Position numbers and translations under genes: made by a program. From positions 450,208-514,207 of the forward strand of contig OZ246406.1 of the NCBI GenBank assembly GCA_965231045.1: a DNA stretch of 64,000 nt. The letters are read 5' to 3'. This document shows, one piece after another, positions 4,546-59,647 of this stretch. Below the pieces are notes generated by a model. That model saw only the letters and a list, made by a program, of their open reading frames with translations. It did no database searches and was not told the origin of the DNA. This stretch comes from an uncultured Candidatus Saccharibacteria bacterium. Its GTDB lineage: Bacteria; Patescibacteriota; Saccharimonadia; Saccharimonadales; JAGQNJ01. How positions within the stretch are numbered: the stretch's first letter is position 1; each line of letters opens with the position of its first letter.

Positions 4546-4734
4546 TAAAATAACCCTTCGTTTTAGAGGCTTTCGCCCTTGATATTACTTCGATTGTGAT
4601 AATGAAATATCGAGTAATACGTCTAAAACAAACCCGGGTTCACTAATTACAATGTCCATATACATTAGCATTATTTTTAAGAGGTGTCAACAGTTTAGCC
4701 CCTACTTTCTTGTTTCTGCAAGAAAGCTAGCAAA

Positions 4735-4872
4735 GAACCGACAGGCGACTGGCTCGTATGATGCAACCACCTGTCAAAGCACACAACAGCCTCAGTAACT
4801 CGCTCCGCTCAGACATCCCTCGGCTTTATAGTTGTGCCTTTGCCGTGTTTGCTCAGCCTCCCCAGAGCCTGG
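4735..4872 (+). repeat. G+C-rich intergenic repeat, copy A (left flank of the R-M cassette)
   Basis: Collinear anchor blocks shared with copy B in inverted orientation: CAGGCGACT 4742-4750, ACTCGCTC 4798-4805, CAGAGCCTGG 4863-4872. It also shares blocks with the copies at 35453-35517, 32329-32420 and 26350-26518. Aligned by eye. Confidence 0.55.
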
Positions 4873-4906
4873 GAATATTACCTTACCTCTGATAGTATAA
4901 ATATCA

Positions 4907-7384
4907 ATGAGTAAAGAGGCTGCTGCTCGAATCAAAATCAATAAACTGCTTGAGGAAGCTGGTTGGGATTTTGATCAAAATATTAAGGTTGAGGCTGGCG
5001 TAAACATTAACGAAGTTGGTGATGATTACGAGCACAGTAAACATGGATTTATTGATTACTTACTGCTGGATGACAAGGGTTTCCCTCTTTTAGTTCTGGA
5101 GGCAAAAAAAGAAAGCAAAAGTCCGCTAGATGGTAAAGAGCAAGCAAGGAATTACGCAAGAAGCAATAAAGCCAGATTTATCATTCTAAGCAACGGTAAC
5201 CTGCATTACTTTTGGGATACAGAACATGGCACCGAAAAGTTAATCACTGACTTCCCTTCACAAAAATCATTACTTGATTTGCAGGATTACAAACCAGACC
5301 ACAAGACACTTGCCGGTGAGAAAGTTCAAGGAGATTACATTGCTCTCAGTCAAATGCCAAACTATGCTGAAGATCCAGACTGGCTGGCCGGAGGCCACAA
5401 GCAAGAAGCATTCAAAGATCGCCATGGCTTAAAGTTTATGCGCTACTACCAGCTCGATGCAATCCATGCCATCCAAGATGCTGCTAAAGAAGGTAAAGAG
5501 CGCTATCTGCTTGAGATGGCAACAGGTACTGGCAAAACTCTTACAACGATAGCAATCTGCAAACTATTTTTAAGAACTGGAAATGCCAGCCGAATACTAT
5601 TTTTGGTTGACCGTATAGAACTAGAGAAGCAAGCAGCTAAGGACTTTAAGGCAATCAAAAATGACTATTTGACTAGTGTTTACAAAGAAAATAAAGATGA
5701 TTGGCGCAAAGCAAATATAGTGATCTCCACAGTCCAGACGCTAATGGCCGGCGACCGATACAAAAAGGAATTTGACCCTACAGATTTTGATCTAGTAATT
5801 TCAGATGAAGCACACCGCTCCATCGGTGGCAACTCACGCAGTGTATTCGAATACTTCATTGGCTACAAACTTGGCTTAACTGCCACTCCAAAAGACTATC
5901 TAAAACATGTAGATACAAACAAAGAGAGTCAAAAGGACCAAGAGCGACGGCAGCTATTAGACACTTACAAAACCTTTGGTTGTGATAGTGGTGAGCCGAC
6001 ATATCGTTATGACCTAAAAAAGGGTGCCGCAGATGGCTTTTTGATTCAGCCAACAGTGGTCGATGCACGTACAGAGATAACTACCCAACTACTTAGTGAT
6101 GAAGGTTACGAAGTTGAACGCAAGAATGACGAAGGCGATATTGAAAAACAAGTTTACTTTAGTCGTCAATTTGAGCGTAAGTTCTTTAACGAAGATACGA
6201 ACGTTGCTTTCTGTAAGGCTTTTGTAGATAACGCGTTACGCGATCCAATTAGTCAGGAAGTTGGTAAAAGCCTTATTTTCTGTGTAACTCAAGACCATGC
6301 GCAAAAGATTACTCTAATACTAAATCAAATTGCCGACAAAAAATGGCCTGGAAAGTACAGTTCCGACTTTGCAATTCAAGTAAGTAGCAACGTAGACGCC
6401 GCACAAGAAATGACCACTAAGTTTAGCAACAACAACCTTAATGGCACAACTCGCTTTAAAGATGGCTACAAATCCAGCCGTACGCGAATTTGTGTAACGG
6501 TTGGGATGATGACAACTGGATACGACTGCCCTGACATTCTAAACGTTGCTTTTATGCGTCCTGTATTCAGCCCTGCAGATTTTATACAAATGAAAGGCCG
6601 TGGCACGCGAAGAGCCGTATTTAGCTACGAGGACGAAACCAAAGAAAAGTTTGAGGTTCCCAAAAAAGCCTTCAAGCTTTTTGACTTCTTCGCAGTATGT
6701 GAATACTTCGAGGAGAAGTTTAATTACGACGAGCAGCTTAAACTACCGCCAACCATTGGGCGCAAAAACGTTGATGAAGAAGAACGAACAGAACGCTACA
6801 TAACAGACGATTTGGAGCTTGGCAGACGCGACGATATCCAAACTATCAAAGAAGAGCAAATCGGTAATGAAGGCATGCGTGTGGACCGTGAAGTTTGGGG
6901 CGAAAAGGCGAAAGAAGCTATAGAAAAAGACCAAGAAATCTCTGAATTATACAAATCTGGCGATATTTATGGTGCCGAAAAGGCCGTGATAGAAAAACAC
7001 TTTGAAAAGCCAAAACTATACATCAGCCGTAGTAAGTTCAAACAAGCTTTCAAACTCGACCGTCGCCCGCATGTAAAAGAAATATTGGAATATGTGTTTG
7101 GTGATCGTGATAACTTTCAGTCAAAGGACGAAATTGTATCAGATGAATTCGAAAGCTTTGTGCAAAACGAAGGCATTACACCAGATCAATACAGTGCAGC
7201 ACGTGATGTATTTAGTGCATACACCACTGATCCACATGTACGTGAGCTGATTGACGAAGGTCGCTTTGCAGAGCTAGACTTCACAGGCCTCAAAATGGAC
7301 GACTGGATTAACCTAGCGCCTGAACTACGTAAACGCATTCCTGAATACGCCCGTGATTATGTTTTAGAAAAAGTTGCTGATTAA
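4907..7384 (+). CDS. hsdR: Type I restriction enzyme R subunit (HsdR-like, 825 aa)
   Basis: N-terminal PD-(D/E)xK HSDR_N-like region (IDYLLL...VLEAKK). Helicase motifs ATGTGKT, DEAH (VISDEAHRS), GLTATP, MKGRGTR. EcoEI_R_C-like C-terminus. Confidence 0.85.
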   Translation: MSKEAAARIKINKLLEEAGWDFDQNIKVEAGVNINEVGDDYEHSKHGFIDYLLLDDKGFPLLVLEAKKESKSPLDGKEQARNYARSNKARFIILSNGNLHYFWDTEHGTEKLITDFPSQKSLLDLQDYKPDHKTLAGEKVQGDYIALSQMPNYAEDPDWLAGGHKQEAFKDRHGLKFMRYYQLDAIHAIQDAAKEGKERYLLEMATGTGKTLTTIAICKLFLRTGNASRILFLVDRIELEKQAAKDFKAIKNDYLTSVYKENKDDWRKANIVISTVQTLMAGDRYKKEFDPTDFDLVISDEAHRSIGGNSRSVFEYFIGYKLGLTATPKDYLKHVDTNKESQKDQERRQLLDTYKTFGCDSGEPTYRYDLKKGAADGFLIQPTVVDARTEITTQLLSDEGYEVERKNDEGDIEKQVYFSRQFERKFFNEDTNVAFCKAFVDNALRDPISQEVGKSLIFCVTQDHAQKITLILNQIADKKWPGKYSSDFAIQVSSNVDAAQEMTTKFSNNNLNGTTRFKDGYKSSRTRICVTVGMMTTGYDCPDILNVAFMRPVFSPADFIQMKGRGTRRAVFSYEDETKEKFEVPKKAFKLFDFFAVCEYFEEKFNYDEQLKLPPTIGRKNVDEEERTERYITDDLELGRRDDIQTIKEEQIGNEGMRVDREVWGEKAKEAIEKDQEISELYKSGDIYGAEKAVIEKHFEKPKLYISRSKFKQAFKLDRRPHVKEILEYVFGDRDNFQSKDEIVSDEFESFVQNEGITPDQYSAARDVFSAYTTDPHVRELIDEGRFAELDFTGLKMDDWINLAPELRKRIPEYARDYVLEKVAD

Positions 7385-19796: not shown

Positions 19797-19815
19797 TGGT
19801 GGAGCTGCCGAGTAC
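19797..19815 (-). repeat. 19-nt exact duplicate of the tmRNA 3' end (T-stem 3' strand + acceptor + ACCA)
   Basis: TGGTGGAGCTGCCGAGTAC at 19797-19815 is identical to 19969-19987. Similarity continues into the GATTTT flank. Confidence 0.9.
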
Positions 19816-19930
19816 GAACTATTTTGCGCCTAGGGACAAAATTGCTTCGCAATTGCCCATGGCGGCCAAGCAAGGATTCCTCAAACTGCCACTGGCAGTT
19901 CTCACCCTCACGGCCAGCACTCGAACGTCA

Positions 19931-19966
19931 AACAAAAAATCTCCATTCCATAAGGAATCGAGATTT
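19931..19966 (-). terminator. intrinsic terminator 2 nt after the tmRNA 3' end (inside the insert)
   Basis: Minus strand reads AAATCTC-GATTCCTTATGGAATG-GAGATTT followed by TTTGTTTG. Confidence 0.5.
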
Positions 19967-19968
19967 TG

Positions 19969-20381
19969 TGGTGGAGCTGCCGAGTACTGCCCTCGGGTCC
20001 GTCAGTTTATCTTTGTTAGTCTTCTACAGGTTTAGTCTATCTAAGTGTCTTAGGAGTATGTCTCAAGATAGACAGAAAAACATATTCCGCAGACTCTAAA
20101 GTCTTGGCACTAATAAGGAGTCAACTTATCAATGGGCATCCAGAAAATATGACATGCGTATTGAAATATCTGGCGTCATTCAAAGCACGGCTCCGGTAAT
20201 TAAACTGAAGCTGTTACGGTCTGAAGCTGTAGACCTGTAAATGCGTTAGCAAATACAGAAGCTACGCTCTTCAAACCGCGAGTAATAGCGTTTGCAATTA
20301 CTGGGTTTTGCCTATAACGCTGACAAGCGACCTGCAAGATCTAACTGATAAAGTCCAACGTCGAGCTTAAAATTCAGCCCC
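19969..20381 (-). ncRNA. ssrA: tmRNA (SsrA), 413 nt
   Basis: 5' GGGGCUGAAUUUUAAGCUCGACG and 3' CCGAG-GGCAGUA-CUCGG-CAGCUCC-A-CCA. The acceptor pairs GGGGCUG/CAGCUCC with the G3:U Ala identity pair. Candidate resume context UAAUU-GCA-AAC-GCU resembles E. coli UAGUC-GCA-AAC-GAC. Confidence 0.88.
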
Positions 20382-35370: not shown

Positions 35371-35401
35371 TAAAAAGCCCAGCCGATGCTGCGCTCTTTT
35401 T
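35371..35401 (-). terminator. intrinsic terminator after the displaced tRNA-Glu 3'-end copy
   Basis: Minus strand reads AGCGCAGC-ATCG-GCTGGGCT (one mismatch) followed by TTTTTAATTTTTTT. Confidence 0.5.
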
Positions 35402-35419
35402 GGTGACCTCAAGGGGAAT
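35401..35419 (-). repeat. 19-nt exact duplicate of the tRNA-Glu 3' end
   Basis: TGGTGACCTCAAGGGGAAT at 35401-35419 is identical to 35531-35549. Confidence 0.9.
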
Positions 35420-35530
35420 GTTGCTTCGCAACCGTTCGTTCCACTCACGAACGAACCGCCTGACGGGCTTCGAGCTCGCCTTTGGCGAGCAACCACGCAA
35501 AAGCCCGAGTACACAACTCGGGCATTCACG
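35420..35530 (+). repeat. 111-nt insert between tRNA-Glu and its 3'-end duplicate; partial member of the G+C-rich repeat family
   Basis: Collinear with copy A: GAACCG 35453/4735, GAC.GGCT(T)CG, GCAACCAC 35489-35496/4763-4770, CAAA(A)GC, and ACACAAC 35511-35517/4781-4787. Hairpins are GTTGC-TTC-GCAAC, CGTTCGT-TCCACTC-ACGAACG and GCTCGCC-TTT-GGCGAGC. Confidence 0.55.
35497..35523 (-). terminator. intrinsic terminator 8 nt after the tRNA-Glu 3' end (inside the insert)
   Basis: Minus strand reads GCCCGAG-TTGTGTA-CTCGGGC followed by TTTTG. Confidence 0.6.
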
Positions 35531-35605
35531 TGGTGACCTCAAGGGGAATCGAACCCCTATTGCCAGGATGAAAACCTGGTGTCCTAACCGTTAGACGATG
35601 AGGCC
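35531..35605 (-). tRNA. tRNA-Glu (anticodon UUC), CCA encoded
   Basis: GGCCTCATCGTCTAACGGTTAGGACACCAGGTTTTCATCCTGGCAATAGGGGTTCGATTCCCCTTGAGGTCACCA folds as a cloverleaf. Anticodon stem CCAGG/CCTGG, loop UUUUCAU. Confidence 0.9.
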
Positions 35606-52606: not shown

Positions 52607-52642
52607 CTCGTCAGAGCAAGCCCAAAGCCTCACTCTGACGAG
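52607..52642 (+). other. perfect 10-bp hairpin abutting the tRNA-Lys 5' end
   Basis: CTCGTCAGAG (52607-52616) / CTCTGACGAG (52633-52642). The last G is tRNA nt 1. The upstream GCGAGTTTACT 52598-52608 matches rc of copy A 4794-4803. Confidence 0.5.
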
Positions 52643-52718
52643 GGCCACTAGCTCAGCTGGTTAGAGCATCGGCCTCTTAAGCCGAGTGTCCTGGGTTCGA
52701 GTCCCAGGTGGCCCTCCA
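52642..52718 (+). tRNA. tRNA-Lys (anticodon CUU), CCA encoded
   Basis: GGGCCACTAGCTCAGCTGGTTAGAGCATCGGCCTCTTAAGCCGAGTGTCCTGGGTTCGAGTCCCAGGTGGCCCTCCA. Anticodon loop CUCUUAA. Confidence 0.9.
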
Positions 52719-52731
52719 ATACATTGTCAAT

Positions 52732-52758
52732 AATGCCATAACATGGCATTATTTTATT
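52732..52758 (+). terminator. intrinsic terminator 14 nt after tRNA-Lys
   Basis: AATGCCAT-AAC-ATGGCATT followed by ATTTTATT. Confidence 0.6.
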
Positions 52759-52869
52759 ATTGTGACTACCTTTAGTGCAGAGAATGGAAATAATTGGCAC
52801 ATTGAACGAGCAGAAATAGACCCATATTTTGCAGCTGAGACATGTAGAGAGATTGGCCAATTAGCATCT

Positions 52870-53328
52870 ATGGAGCTAGAACTTCCTGATGGGGTAATCT
52901 CCTCAAGGTTACTAGTAGATGGTCGAAGGCTATCTGGATTTCAGTGCTGTGTTGAGCCAGCGCTTGATACAGACCGTGACGGTCTTTTAAATTATCCGGA
53001 GTTTGCCGCGAGAGTACCAAATTTACTTAAGCTCTTTCATCTACGGCGTAAGACTGTCGGGAGTACAGTGCCGGGTTTTGGGATTAACATACTTGGTTCA
53101 CACGGATTTATCCAGACACACAGAGACGCCTATCTGTCCCCATCAAGTGCTACGGTCTTAGAAGGTGAGTCCACAACTACTATTACCGATCCGATAACTG
53201 GCATAGAACGTATATTTACACTAGCTGTTGGCGACTCCTTTACTCTGCAAAATACCGCAGGTAGTCCACCCCCTTTACACGGAGCGCGTAACTTAAAATC
53301 TAAACGACGAATTACATTTGTTATTTAA
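52870..53328 (+). CDS. 2OG-Fe(II) oxygenase-like protein (start uncertain: ATG 52870 or GTG 52762)
   Basis: HxD (QTHRDA) ... GD ... H (PLHGA) ... RRITF pattern. The track's ATG at 52708 overlaps the tRNA and is rejected. Confidence 0.5.
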   Translation: MELELPDGVISSRLLVDGRRLSGFQCCVEPALDTDRDGLLNYPEFAARVPNLLKLFHLRRKTVGSTVPGFGINILGSHGFIQTHRDAYLSPSSATVLEGESTTTITDPITGIERIFTLAVGDSFTLQNTAGSPPPLHGARNLKSKRRITFVI

Positions 53329-53459
53329 CGAGAAGCCTTTAGGTCCGCGAGGTAGACCCCTCCATCACGATATTCCATTCCAAGGTCAATGAGACGATGA
53401 TATAAGATTGTCAAATCCTCGATAATATTGAATTCGGGGTGTTCCAAAAAAATACCTCC

Positions 53460-53470
53460 TGGCCCTCCAA
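53460..53470 (+). repeat. 11-nt exact duplicate of the tRNA-Lys 3' end (TGGCCCTCCAA)
   Basis: 53460-53470 is identical to 52709-52719 (acceptor 3' strand + discriminator + CCA + A), with partial similarity further 5'. Confidence 0.6.
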
Positions 53471-53515
53471 AATGGTTAAAAGAGGCGGGGAGCGTCTTTT
53501 TGTTATGATAGAGGT

Positions 53516-58828: not shown

Positions 58829-59344
58829 TTACTTAGCTAGTTCGTTTAGATATTTTTGCGCTCTTTTTGAAACAGACTTATGAGGATCGCTCATCAGCCT
58901 CTTTAGTTGTTTTGAATAATCTGTAGCTAGGCTGGTGTTTTCTTTAACAAACTTGTACATTATTTCAATGCTAAAATTGAGTACTATCCAATCAGTGGCA
59001 TGTTCTAGGTTAGACCTAAGAATTTCAATGGCTCTTTTAGTTTGTATTTCATTTAGATCAAGTTCTCCCATCATTTGCACCAAATGCCACTGTACTGATG
59101 GCTGGTCAATTTTATAAACTTCAGTTTGTAATCTATCAATATAATCACTGAACCAATCCGGATGTACTCGACAAATTTTTTCCAGTGCATCACCGGCACG
59201 CATCCTGACAAGCTCATCACTAACAAATAAACAGTCAAATAGTGTTTTTAGTTCGCCAGGGTTTTCAAAGACAAAATGGATAACTTCTTCTGTGTGACCA
59301 AGACTATTTGGATGCCCACCAGTAAGCAAAAGTTCGATGTTCAT
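58829..59344 (-). CDS. HEAT-repeat protein (DNA alkylation repair AlkD-like, tentative)
   Basis: 171 aa, all-helical repeat character. Weak resemblance to PF08713 proteins. Confidence 0.4.
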   Translation of the reverse strand: MNIELLLTGGHPNSLGHTEEVIHFVFENPGELKTLFDCLFVSDELVRMRAGDALEKICRVHPDWFSDYIDRLQTEVYKIDQPSVQWHLVQMMGELDLNEIQTKRAIEILRSNLEHATDWIVLNFSIEIMYKFVKENTSLATDYSKQLKRLMSDPHKSVSKRAQKYLNELAK

Positions 59345-59386
59345 AAATCTATGGTAACAGACAGCCTGTGGTTAATCGTATTGCAC

Positions 59387-59403
59387 GGTACACCGGGAGG
59401 GAT
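59387..59403 (-). repeat. 17-nt exact duplicate of the tRNA-Arg 3' end
   Basis: GGTACACCGGGAGGGAT at 59387-59403 is identical to 59535-59551. Confidence 0.88.
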
Positions 59404-59494
59404 AATCGCACATTAATCTGTGCGCCGAGAATCTCGGGCAACAGACTAATGACCGAACCCTGGATCGAATCCCTGCTCGAAATGTCGAGCTAAA

Positions 59495-59519
59495 ATATAA
59501 AACCACCCATTCTGGGTGG
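59495..59519 (-). terminator. intrinsic terminator 14 nt after the tRNA-Arg 3' end (inside the insert)
   Basis: Minus strand reads CCACCCA-GAA-TGGGTGG followed by TTTTATATTTT. Confidence 0.6.
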
Positions 59520-59533
59520 CAAAATATTTTACC

Positions 59534-59610
59534 TGGTACACCGGGAGGGATTCGAACCCCCGACCCTCTGTTCCGAAGACAGATGCTCTAATCCGCTGAG
59601 CTACCGGTGC
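59534..59610 (-). tRNA. tRNA-Arg (anticodon UCG), CCA encoded
   Basis: GCACCGGTAGCTCAGCGGATTAGAGCATCTGTCTTCGGAACAGAGGGTCGGGGGTTCGAATCCCTCCCGGTGTACCA. Anticodon loop CUUCGGA. Confidence 0.9.
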
Positions 59611-59621
59611 ACGTCAAATTG

Positions 59622-59647
59622 CAATTATAACAGACAATTATAACAGA
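59622..59647 (-). promoter_or_regulatory. tandem duplicated extended -10 promoter candidates upstream of tRNA-Arg
   Basis: The 13-nt unit CAATTATAACAGA occurs twice in tandem. On the minus strand each unit reads TCTGTTATAATTG (TGnTATAAT). The proximal box ends 13 nt before tRNA nt 1. Confidence 0.4.

Follow-up and report, generated by a model that had tools for sequence, protein, structure and literature searches.

In E. coli, the tyrT region contains units 178 nt apart downstream of tyrT and again downstream of tyrV, and each of these units ends in AATCCTTCCCCCACCACCA, which is identical to the final 19 nt of tRNA-Tyr. The copied CCA is also the exact 3' end of rttR, a small RNA annotated in this bacterium. 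The Rfam family RF00391 (RtT), whose consensus has the closing helix GgGaaGGAU/AUCCuuCcC and a free ccaCCACCA tail, matched four of the E. coli units at 133-137 bits and was the positive control in this study. The 178-bp tyrT repeats and the rtT RNA have been known since 1978-1991 and have, to our knowledge, no accepted function or origin.

The sites of tRNA-targeting P4-like integrases typically show a 17-22-nt identity block that extends from the T-loop to the 3' end of the tRNA gene. Small RNAs derived from tRNA 3' external transcribed spacers, such as 3'ETS-leuZ, act as sponges through short seed pairing. The latter resemble the element proposed here in that a functional RNA comes from the trailer of a tRNA transcript, and differ from it in their mode of action as well as in having neither a copy of the tRNA 3' end nor an inverted T-arm.

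Here, we analysed the 3' end of a tRNA-Arg gene that is present twice in a 64 kb stretch of DNA, hereafter the window. We estimate at roughly 70%, by analogy with RtT, the probability that an RtT-type tRNA-trailer element ends in this duplicate and would give rise to a sense-strand RNA carrying a tRNA-like tail at its 3' end.

The duplicated 3' end of tRNA-Arg and its surroundings

The original prediction stated that the 3' end of tRNA-Arg occurs a second time downstream of the gene, with only the terminal A of CCA missing. Indeed, GGTACACCGGGAGGGAT has exactly two occurrences in the 64 kb window (Table 1), no further site with up to three mismatches was found there, and two matches were obtained in 0/100 dinucleotide shuffles. 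On the gene strand the repeat reads ATCCCTCCCGGTGTACC and spans the last 2 nt of the T-loop, the 3' strand of the T-stem, the 3' strand of the acceptor stem, the discriminator and CC; the base that follows copy 2 is G instead of A. The element lies directly 3' of tRNA-Arg on the same strand. The terminator that had been predicted at the start of the insert (CCACCCA-GAA-TGGGTGG and a T-run) was also located by our scan.

Table 1. Features of the Arg locus and of the related loci in the window.
Feature	Position	Strand	Remarks
tRNA-Arg(TCG) gene with encoded CCA	59534-59610	minus	ARAGORN; Rfam tRNA model, 67.2 bits
Arg repeat copy 1, within tRNA-Arg (tRNA positions 59-75)	59535-59551	minus	
Stretch between the Arg copies (trailer and element body; A of CCA included)	59404-59534	minus	131 nt
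Arg element	59387-59533	minus	
Sigma-70-like promoter match TTGCCA-17-TATATT	59522 down to 59494	minus	overlaps the terminator-like hairpin
Intrinsic-terminator-like hairpin GCCACCCA-GAA-TGGGTGGT and T-run, right after tRNA-Arg	59492-59520 (hairpin 59502-59520)	minus	
Small hairpin GCUCGA-CAUU-UCGAGC, precedes the inverted motif	59475-59490	minus	minimum-free-energy fold
Inverted T-arm copy, gene strand AGGGAUUCGAUCC, forward GGATCGAATCC(CT)	59462-59474	minus	
GGGUUCGG, direct-orientation copy of the T-stem 5' strand and the T-loop start	59453-59460	minus	
Long hairpin CAUUAGUCUGU-U-GCCCGAG-AUU-CUCGG-C-GCACAGAUUAAUG	~59411-59451	minus	minimum-free-energy fold
Arg repeat copy 2, AUCCCUCCCGGUGUACC, 3' end of the element	59387-59403	minus	without the final A of CCA
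Gene for a 171-aa HEAT-like protein	58829-59344		
tRNA-Glu gene	35531-35605	minus	
tRNA-Glu, last 19 nt repeated	35401-35419 / 35531-35549	minus	spacing 130 nt
tmRNA gene	19969-20381	minus	Rfam
tmRNA, last 19 nt repeated	19797-19815 / 19969-19987	minus	spacing 172 nt

The inverted motif of the insert is complementary to the T-loop and the T-stem 3' strand of tRNA-Arg and matches the reverse complement of the T-arm (59546-59558) at 12/13 positions; according to our own arithmetic, about 8e-5 matches of this quality are expected per 131 nt. Whether this T-arm-like piece on the opposite strand belongs to a tRNA fragment had been raised as a question in the original prediction. No second tRNA or pseudo-tRNA was detected on either strand of the insert with ARAGORN or with the Rfam tRNA model at E <= 10, and the piece represents the T-arm copy in inverted orientation that most elements of this kind contain (see below). 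Six base pairs (AGGGAU/AUCCCU) can form between the inverted motif, as the 5' strand, and copy 2. They constitute a closing helix, of which the minimum-free-energy fold pairs GGGA with UCCC. With these 6 bp the motif pairs less well with copy 2 than with the real tRNA; the equivalent inverted motifs at other loci pair with the 3' copy.

The direct-orientation block GGGUUCGG has its counterpart in the GGGUUCGAC block that is present in RtT and in the metagenomic elements that we call family B (compared with E. coli and with contig L217). Of the hairpins originally predicted, CCGAG-AAT-CTCGG is present, but it is the tip of the long hairpin and not a separate structure; similarly, the arms CGCACA and TGTGCG exist, but the minimum-free-energy fold absorbs both into the same long hairpin. 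The latter is homologous to the element beside a tRNA-Gln on contig L193 (84.6% identity over 52 nt, E = 0.011), and at least one compensatory change, from A-U to G-C, could be recognised by eye. The whole Arg element folds with z = -4.6 in comparison to shuffles, and AGGGAU/AUCCCU closes around the long hairpin. Since a terminator-like hairpin stands between tRNA-Arg and the element, their co-transcription is not assured.

An exact copy of the 3' end, 17-19 nt in length and running from the T-loop to CC(A), was found on the same strand 130-172 nt downstream at three of the four tRNA-like genes of the window (tRNA-Arg, tRNA-Glu and tmRNA), when each of these genes was searched against the window; the same search revealed no downstream copy for tRNA-Lys. 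The sequences of the three inserts show no relationship (60/100 identity), but their plan is common: a terminator-like hairpin and stable hairpins are followed by the copy, so the predicted similarity in architecture and not in sequence holds for all three. A second hairpin resembling a terminator lies 3' of the copy at the Glu and tmRNA loci. In the tmRNA element UCGAGUGC pairs with GUACUCGG, leaving an 11-nt tail, and the Glu element has a weaker version of this closing-helix plan; both elements fold only modestly better than shuffles (z ~ -1.7).

The neighbouring gene product of 178 aa, an HTH protein, has homologues labelled Candidatus Saccharimonadales (CPR), and the tRNA-Arg sequence recurs in Saccharibacteria MAGs; a protein search of the genome contig collection gave no match to the 178-aa protein. 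Eight independent Logan contigs from this species have an Arg insert with 100% identity to that of the window. Among the closest relatives fetched (L023, L264 and L021, with 81%, 79% and 75% protein identity, respectively), tRNA-Arg is followed by other sequence without a second copy, these being different species in which the exact boundaries are not definable. In L022, a 71% relative with the same gene order, we observed an insert of similar size, with a decayed 13-nt copy and an inverted T-arm motif of its own. As the site is empty in three relatives and occupied in the fourth, the Arg element is not ancestral to the group or is easily lost.

An apparent integrated element in L001, where identical flanking proteins are accompanied by a different post-tRNA sequence, was rejected, because an assembly chimera within the conserved tRNA is most likely. 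The tRNA 3' end of L001, GGGCGTACCA, is mismatched to the 5' acceptor strand of the same gene and identical to the 3' end seen in L038, L081 and L139, which are other Saccharibacteria; the coverage is 2.5x and an N-gap is present. Logan contigs also break inside tRNA-Arg, which has the same trivial cause in assembly.

Occurrence of the pattern and its relation to RtT

The tRNA-Arg pattern matched 119 genome loci. At loci labelled as Saccharibacteria, 4/55 tRNAs had a copy of their 3' end at 146-183 nt, and L083 is a fifth case from this group, in which the copy differs from its own tRNA. In other phyla a copy was found for 1/106 tRNAs, in another CPR lineage and at 260 nt. The metagenomes were scanned with the pattern T-arm ... 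138-168 nt ... ATCCCTCC, which gave at least 120 loci; among the matches listed, about 85 are single-tRNA loci, with genes for Arg, Gln, Ser, Tyr, Pro, Met, Thr and Lys tRNAs on contigs with a GC content of 0.25-0.70. This pattern fixes the spacing and cannot alone show a size class. However, for unselected tRNAs on the same contigs the copies were at 130, 133, 164, 164, 170 and 175 nt, and only a handful occurred at other distances, up to 3 kb. The repeat spacing falls in a class of 130-180 nt, sometimes with several elements per contig.

At the ~85 listed loci and in several Saccharibacteria MAGs, the partial copies reach from T-loop positions 55-59 as far as the 3' terminus of the gene, and across loci the length of the repeat varies from 17 to 28 nt. 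Elements are elsewhere situated between tRNA genes or before unrelated genes, and tandem arrays, which fit unequal exchange between the repeats, occur in E. coli and on L258, L161 and L178. Where the tRNA gene has no encoded CCA, the copy is also without CCA. This implies that the gene, and not the mature tRNA, is what the copy mirrors, and speaks against reverse transcription of mature tRNA (the 18-nt logic of primer-binding sites, PBS), an origin that we rejected. The cores of the Arg and Glu inserts had no match among viral contigs, and our literature search yielded no relevant work, either on Saccharibacteria tRNA repeats or on miniature integrative elements.

Most of the 87 distinct inserts among the matches listed contain, 45-70 nt past the tRNA, the motif GGGATTCGAA or GGGATGAGAAC, which is the reverse complement of the T-loop and the T-stem 3' strand. 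Where the local T-arm differs, the inverted motif differs to match. The 3' copy CGACTCCCT at Leu-TAG (L206, L218) is accompanied by the inverted motif AGGGAGTCG (as paired RNA strands, CGACUCCCU with AGGGAGUCG), the copy CGAACCCC at Lys-CTT (L154) by GGGGTTCG (CGAACCCC with GGGGUUCG), ATCCCAC at Ser-CGA (L240) by GTGGGAT (AUCCCAC with GUGGGAU), and ATCCTTCCCC at E. coli Tyr by GGGGAAGGAT (AUCCUUCCCC with GGGGAAGGAU). For a family of 14 members RNAalifold predicted a three-way junction closed by the pairing of motif and copy. In the alignment 98% of the cells were paired and 7 pairs had compensatory changes; 0/500 shuffles were as good, and in slid controls 27-41% of the cells were paired. Several G-U pairs of this family are on the tRNA-sense strand, which indicates that it is this strand that folds, either as RNA or as single-stranded DNA. 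The cores of hammerhead and other known ribozymes were considered by eye and rejected, and there was no such Rfam match. The elements also lack the hallmark of MITEs, i.e. element-specific terminal inverted repeats with a short target duplication of fixed length: their inverted arms copy the target tRNA and change with it, and the 17-28-nt repeat is variable.

On contigs with two elements, cores of about 100 nt are 87-96% identical, whereas the 3' copies differ from each other at up to half of the positions and each equals its own tRNA perfectly. The core identities were 96/100 for Arg-ACG and Ser-CGA (L240), 93/100 for Arg-TCT and Arg-TCG (L192), 90/100 for Lys-CTT and Arg-TCT (L154), 89/100 for Leu-TAG and Arg-TCG (L218) and 87/100 for Leu-TAG and Arg-TCT (L206). 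On L240 and L154 the identity begins just past the locus-specific part of the inverted motif and stops exactly at the copy, and the trailers are unrelated and locus-specific. Point mutation could not produce about 50% divergence in the flanks beside 4% in the core, which suggests that the tRNA-derived flanks were re-templated from the neighbouring gene. At L083 and L024 the 3' copy matches another tRNA-Arg allele than that of the neighbouring gene, suggesting import by recombination.

The Arg element shares the defining architecture of RtT; membership in the Rfam family is not claimed. Both are located immediately 3' of a tRNA gene and on the same strand, with a unit spacing of about 130-180 nt, and both end with the 3' end of the adjacent tRNA from the T-loop to CCA (exact over 17 nt in the Arg element and over 19 nt in E. 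coli). In both, an upstream segment closes a multi-hairpin domain against the T-loop and T-stem 3' strand, and the acceptor strand with CCA is the tail. Within this domain, AGGGAU-UCGAU-CC-A-GG-GUUCGG of the Arg element parallels GGAAGGAU-GAGAAG-hairpin-GGUUCGAC of E. coli. The elements of the window differ from RtT in being single units and not tandem arrays, in being separated from the tRNA by a terminator-like hairpin, in their association with tRNA-Arg, tRNA-Glu and tmRNA instead of tRNA-Tyr, and in their host, which is a CPR bacterium and not a gammaproteobacterium; in addition, the Arg copy is without the final A.

With RF00391 there was no match in the window at the Rfam gathering threshold and none on 59350-59620 at E <= 10. 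Full-length metagenome matches below the threshold were obtained on L217 (34.6 bits, E = 0.0057) and L228 (34.0 bits, E = 0.0081), and L158 gave 26 bits, likewise below the threshold. We also used models of our own. The model R1, which was built from two E. coli units and the eight metagenome elements of family B, detected eight further elements at E < 0.01, one of them a copy of a training sequence, and had no matches in 100 unselected genome loci; one R1 match at E < 0.01 belongs to family C, to which the Glu and tmRNA elements of the window bear a resemblance. R1 aligned to exactly 59386-59481 of the Arg element, but with E = 3.8, and its best match in the window (E = 0.067) lay inside the tmRNA element. 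R2, a covariance model of family C, had no significant match in the window, the top one being inside the Glu element on the opposite strand (E = 1.6), and nhmmer profiles of families B and C matched only real T-arms there. For a further family, A, the protein chosen to identify the host proved to be a promiscuous DNA methyltransferase and was uninformative. Because the Arg element had no significant match to RF00391, R1, R2 or the nhmmer profiles, its probable assignment to the RtT type rests on architecture, position and short similarities, namely the hairpin shared with L193 and the 5' block CAGGGATTCGATCCAGGGTTCGG, which is close to CAGGGATGAGAACCCAGGGGTTCGAC of L217. By analogy, the Arg element would work like RtT, and the elements of the window are a divergent variant of this long-known, unexplained kind.

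Alternative explanations

The alternative that survives best concerns the spread of the elements and could coexist with a role as RNA. It assumes a miniature non-autonomous mobile element that integrates as a folded single strand at tRNA 3' ends with the help of a tyrosine recombinase of the host. The inverted and the direct copy of the tRNA 3' end would fold into a hairpin resembling the double-stranded target. CTXphi attP(+) and integron attC are comparable: there, too, two inverted target-like copies 60-100 nt apart make an imperfect hairpin, one specific strand folds, and structure is conserved over sequence. The conservation of structure and not of sequence in our elements, with G-T wobble on one strand only, agrees with such a process, as do the patchy presence among close relatives, the occurrence of several copies per contig at different tRNAs and the copies that match a different tRNA-Arg allele (L083, L024). 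Moreover, the order of direct site, short body, inverted site, 60-100-nt spacer and direct site corresponds to the layout of the right end of an integrated CTX prophage. However, the target would be the 3' end of a tRNA gene instead of dif or attI, no recombinase is linked to the elements, neither a free (attP) nor a circular form was found, and the scans of viral contigs were empty. Conservative recombination within the T-arm would also be expected to leave one acceptor strand mismatched, whereas at most loci neither copy differs from the local tRNA, and on L240 and L154 the unit in common is located past the native trailer and not at the tRNA end. The one-strand geometry and the G-T pairs are equally explained by an RNA fold. 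In E. coli, the prototype is expressed as RNA, and we know of no report that it is mobile. On balance, we consider integration as a folded strand improbable.

The original prediction had also implied that the insert is foreign DNA between att-like repeats. According to this explanation, the two copies would be the attL and attR cores of an island or prophage that had integrated into the 3' end of tRNA-Arg and was later almost wholly deleted. A direct repeat over the tRNA 3' end that starts in the T-loop, within the 17-22 nt typical of P4-like sites, is what such an event would leave, and the empty site in the closest relatives (L264, L023 and L021, which are different species) is the part of the claim that stands. 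The integrase scar does not. Only 131 nt without an ORF, an integrase or any cargo separate the copies, and the insert is without a viral-contig match. Inserts of 130-172 nt are present at three loci in 64 kb and the 130-180-nt class recurs at unselected loci; independent deletions would not converge on one size class at many loci. The covarying inverted T-arm copy and the conserved fold are foreign to att scars and have their precedent in RtT, and both repeats match the local tRNA even where the core is common to different tRNAs. A deleted island or prophage is thus very unlikely.

We also evaluated whether the insert could be the promoter and 5' leader of the 171-aa HEAT-like gene, the copy of the tRNA end being an incidental local duplication. 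The gene begins 42 nt past copy 2, there is no terminator 3' of this copy, unlike at the Glu and tmRNA loci, and the insert contains a 10/12 match to a sigma-70 promoter; yet promoter and terminator calls are consensus matches only, and chance alone would give about 0.9 promoters and 0.5 terminators in the stretch that was scanned. At the Glu and tmRNA loci the same architecture leads to terminators and not to genes, elsewhere the elements are between tRNA genes or before unrelated genes, and neither the exact copy of the tRNA end nor the inverted T-arm would be explained. A conserved 5' UTR of the downstream gene in relatives without the tRNA, which the original prediction had named as the contrary finding, received no support, and L022, the sole relative with the same gene order, has both the tRNA and the element. 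We attach hardly any probability to the leader. The same applies to a decayed, functionless tandem duplicate of the tRNA gene, for while true tandem tRNA duplicates at a similar spacing exist in the metagenome set and T-arm-derived pieces occur in the element in both orientations, the insert matches no cloverleaf or tRNA model on either strand (ARAGORN; Rfam tRNA model, E <= 10), the identity has a sharp boundary in the T-loop at about 85 loci among the matches listed, the copy is exact beside a remainder unlike tRNA, and the body is a conserved non-tRNA fold common to different tRNA types.

Proposed mechanism and significance

In the preferred reading, an RtT-type element would be a structured module of about 100-130 nt located just 3' of a tRNA or tRNA-like gene and on the same strand, and would have three parts: the T-arm in inverted orientation, between one and three stable hairpins, and the tRNA 3' end repeated in direct orientation. 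Pairing of the two tRNA-derived parts would close the domain, and the acceptor 3' strand with NCC(A) would stay free as a tRNA-like tail. By analogy with E. coli rtT, transcription on the tRNA strand may result from read-through of the terminator or start at the overlapping promoter-like site. The tRNA 3'-end machinery would then trim the transcript at the copied CC(A), a step extrapolated from E. coli only, and release a small RNA with a tRNA-like tail. Our best guess for its putative role is that of a mimic or decoy of tRNA 3' ends.

Regarding the origin of the elements, their cores may have been copied between tRNA loci, after which the flanks would be re-templated by gene conversion or by template switching, for which the direct repeats and the quasi-palindrome could provide the substrates. 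Such re-templating would keep the copy identical to the local tRNA. Gene conversion and slippage between direct repeats, as well as template switching that perfects quasi-palindromes, are established processes. It is conceivable, though rather doubtful at present, that RtT-like modules form a widespread unrecognised class that extends from E. coli to CPR bacteria and is associated with both tRNAs and tmRNA, in which a shared core spreads and the adjacent gene templates the T-arm copy as well as the copy of the 3' end.

The RtT design is present in a CPR bacterium with a minimal genome, at three of the four tRNA-like genes of the window including tmRNA, and with about 85 more loci among the matches listed, covering many tRNA types and a wide range of GC contents, the pattern is much wider than the Rfam family suggests. 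One practical consequence is that such copies can be mistaken for att sites in genome annotation. The tracking of the local tRNA, together with near-identical cores between local flanks, makes the old puzzle of RtT testable and suggests that retargeting is templated and that the role of the elements is linked to the tRNA 3' end itself. If the elements do spread by templating, this would represent a self-retargeting duplication mechanism directed by tRNA structure, and the RNA or folded single strand would display the local acceptor strand and CCA and might serve, for instance, as a decoy that draws off enzymes or toxins targeting tRNA 3' ends.

Elements downstream of the tRNA-Glu and tmRNA genes

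Two further genes of the window, tRNA-Glu(TTC) and tmRNA, are followed by RtT-like elements, that is, modules ending in a copy of the gene's own 3' end. In the case of tRNA-Glu(TTC), the last 19 nt, ATTCCCCTTGAGGTCACCA, recur 130 nt downstream, and the 111-nt insert, with a GC content of 59% vs 42% for the genome, contains a terminator and three hairpins, as well as a TTGC-GAA-GCAA hairpin located directly beside the repeat copy. A second terminator lies beyond the downstream copy.

The last 19 nt of tmRNA, GTACTCGGCAGCTCCACCA, recur 172 nt downstream, and in the predicted fold of this element UCGAGUGC is paired with GUACUCGG of the copy, leaving an 11-nt tail. To our knowledge, an RtT-like element following tmRNA has not been reported earlier. 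A smaller RtT-like unit within it was aligned by R1, the covariance model built from two E. coli RtT units and eight metagenome elements, and consists of GAGGGUGAGAAC, followed by a hairpin whose loop is CAGUG and then by AAUCCUUGCUUGGCCGCCA. AAUCCUUGCUUGGCCGCCA looks like the 3' end of another tRNA, and the inner unit may be a fossil of an earlier association; no tRNA matching AAUCCUUGCUUGGCCGCCA was found among the loci examined.

Coordinates of the features in the window
Feature	Position	Strand	Remark
tmRNA element with repeats	19797-19987	minus
RtT-like unit within the tmRNA element	19860-19916	minus	R1 alignment, E = 0.067
tRNA-Glu(TTC) element with repeats	35401-35549	minus
tRNA-Lys(CTT) region	52642-53471		no element
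ORF	52708-53328		begins inside the 3' end of tRNA-Lys(CTT)
CAATTATAACAGA tandem duplication	59622-59647		immediately upstream of tRNA-Arg

The only match downstream of tRNA-Lys(CTT), the 11-nt TGGCCCTCCAA about 750 nt away, is at chance level.

The tRNA-Arg site in the window and in its own species

The tandem duplication of CAATTATAACAGA doubles, on the gene strand of tRNA-Arg, the CTGTTATAAT box, which in all relatives is conserved ahead of this tRNA gene and is probably its -10 element. CAATTATAACAGA is single-copy in L012 and L001, two contigs of the same species. At positions 4802-4970 of the latter, an ENA scaffold, the flanking proteins are identical, the downstream sequence is different, an N-gap is present and the acceptor 3' strand of tRNA-Arg is mismatched. 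The most likely explanation of this site is chimeric assembly across species, inside the conserved tRNA.

Elements in other contigs

On low-GC metagenome contigs (27-39% GC; L218, 2280-3220; L206; L192), elements of a single family occur in twos or threes, placed after the neighbouring tRNAs Leu-TAG, Arg-TCG and Arg-TCT. Every element contains a conserved hairpin that includes AUGCCAGUGGCAU, and a junction of the form CUGCAGCGA / GAGACGAAAGAA.

In a 71% relative (L266, 2075-2255), tRNA-Arg is inverted and a mirror-image layout was observed at its 5' end: the first 17 nt, CGCACCGGTAGCTCAGC, have a second copy about 100 nt further upstream, and between the two repeats lies the D-arm region copied in inverted orientation. 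Therefore, 3' ends may not be the only tRNA ends that are duplicated together with an inverted partner.

In two Saccharibacteria MAGs, L083 (~4610-4790) and L024, the downstream copy corresponds not to the adjacent gene but to another tRNA-Arg allele, whose 3' end it repeats (in L083, CCGCCGGTACC in the copy vs CCCGGTGTACC in the gene). These foreign-allele copies suggest that the elements have been exchanged between lineages.
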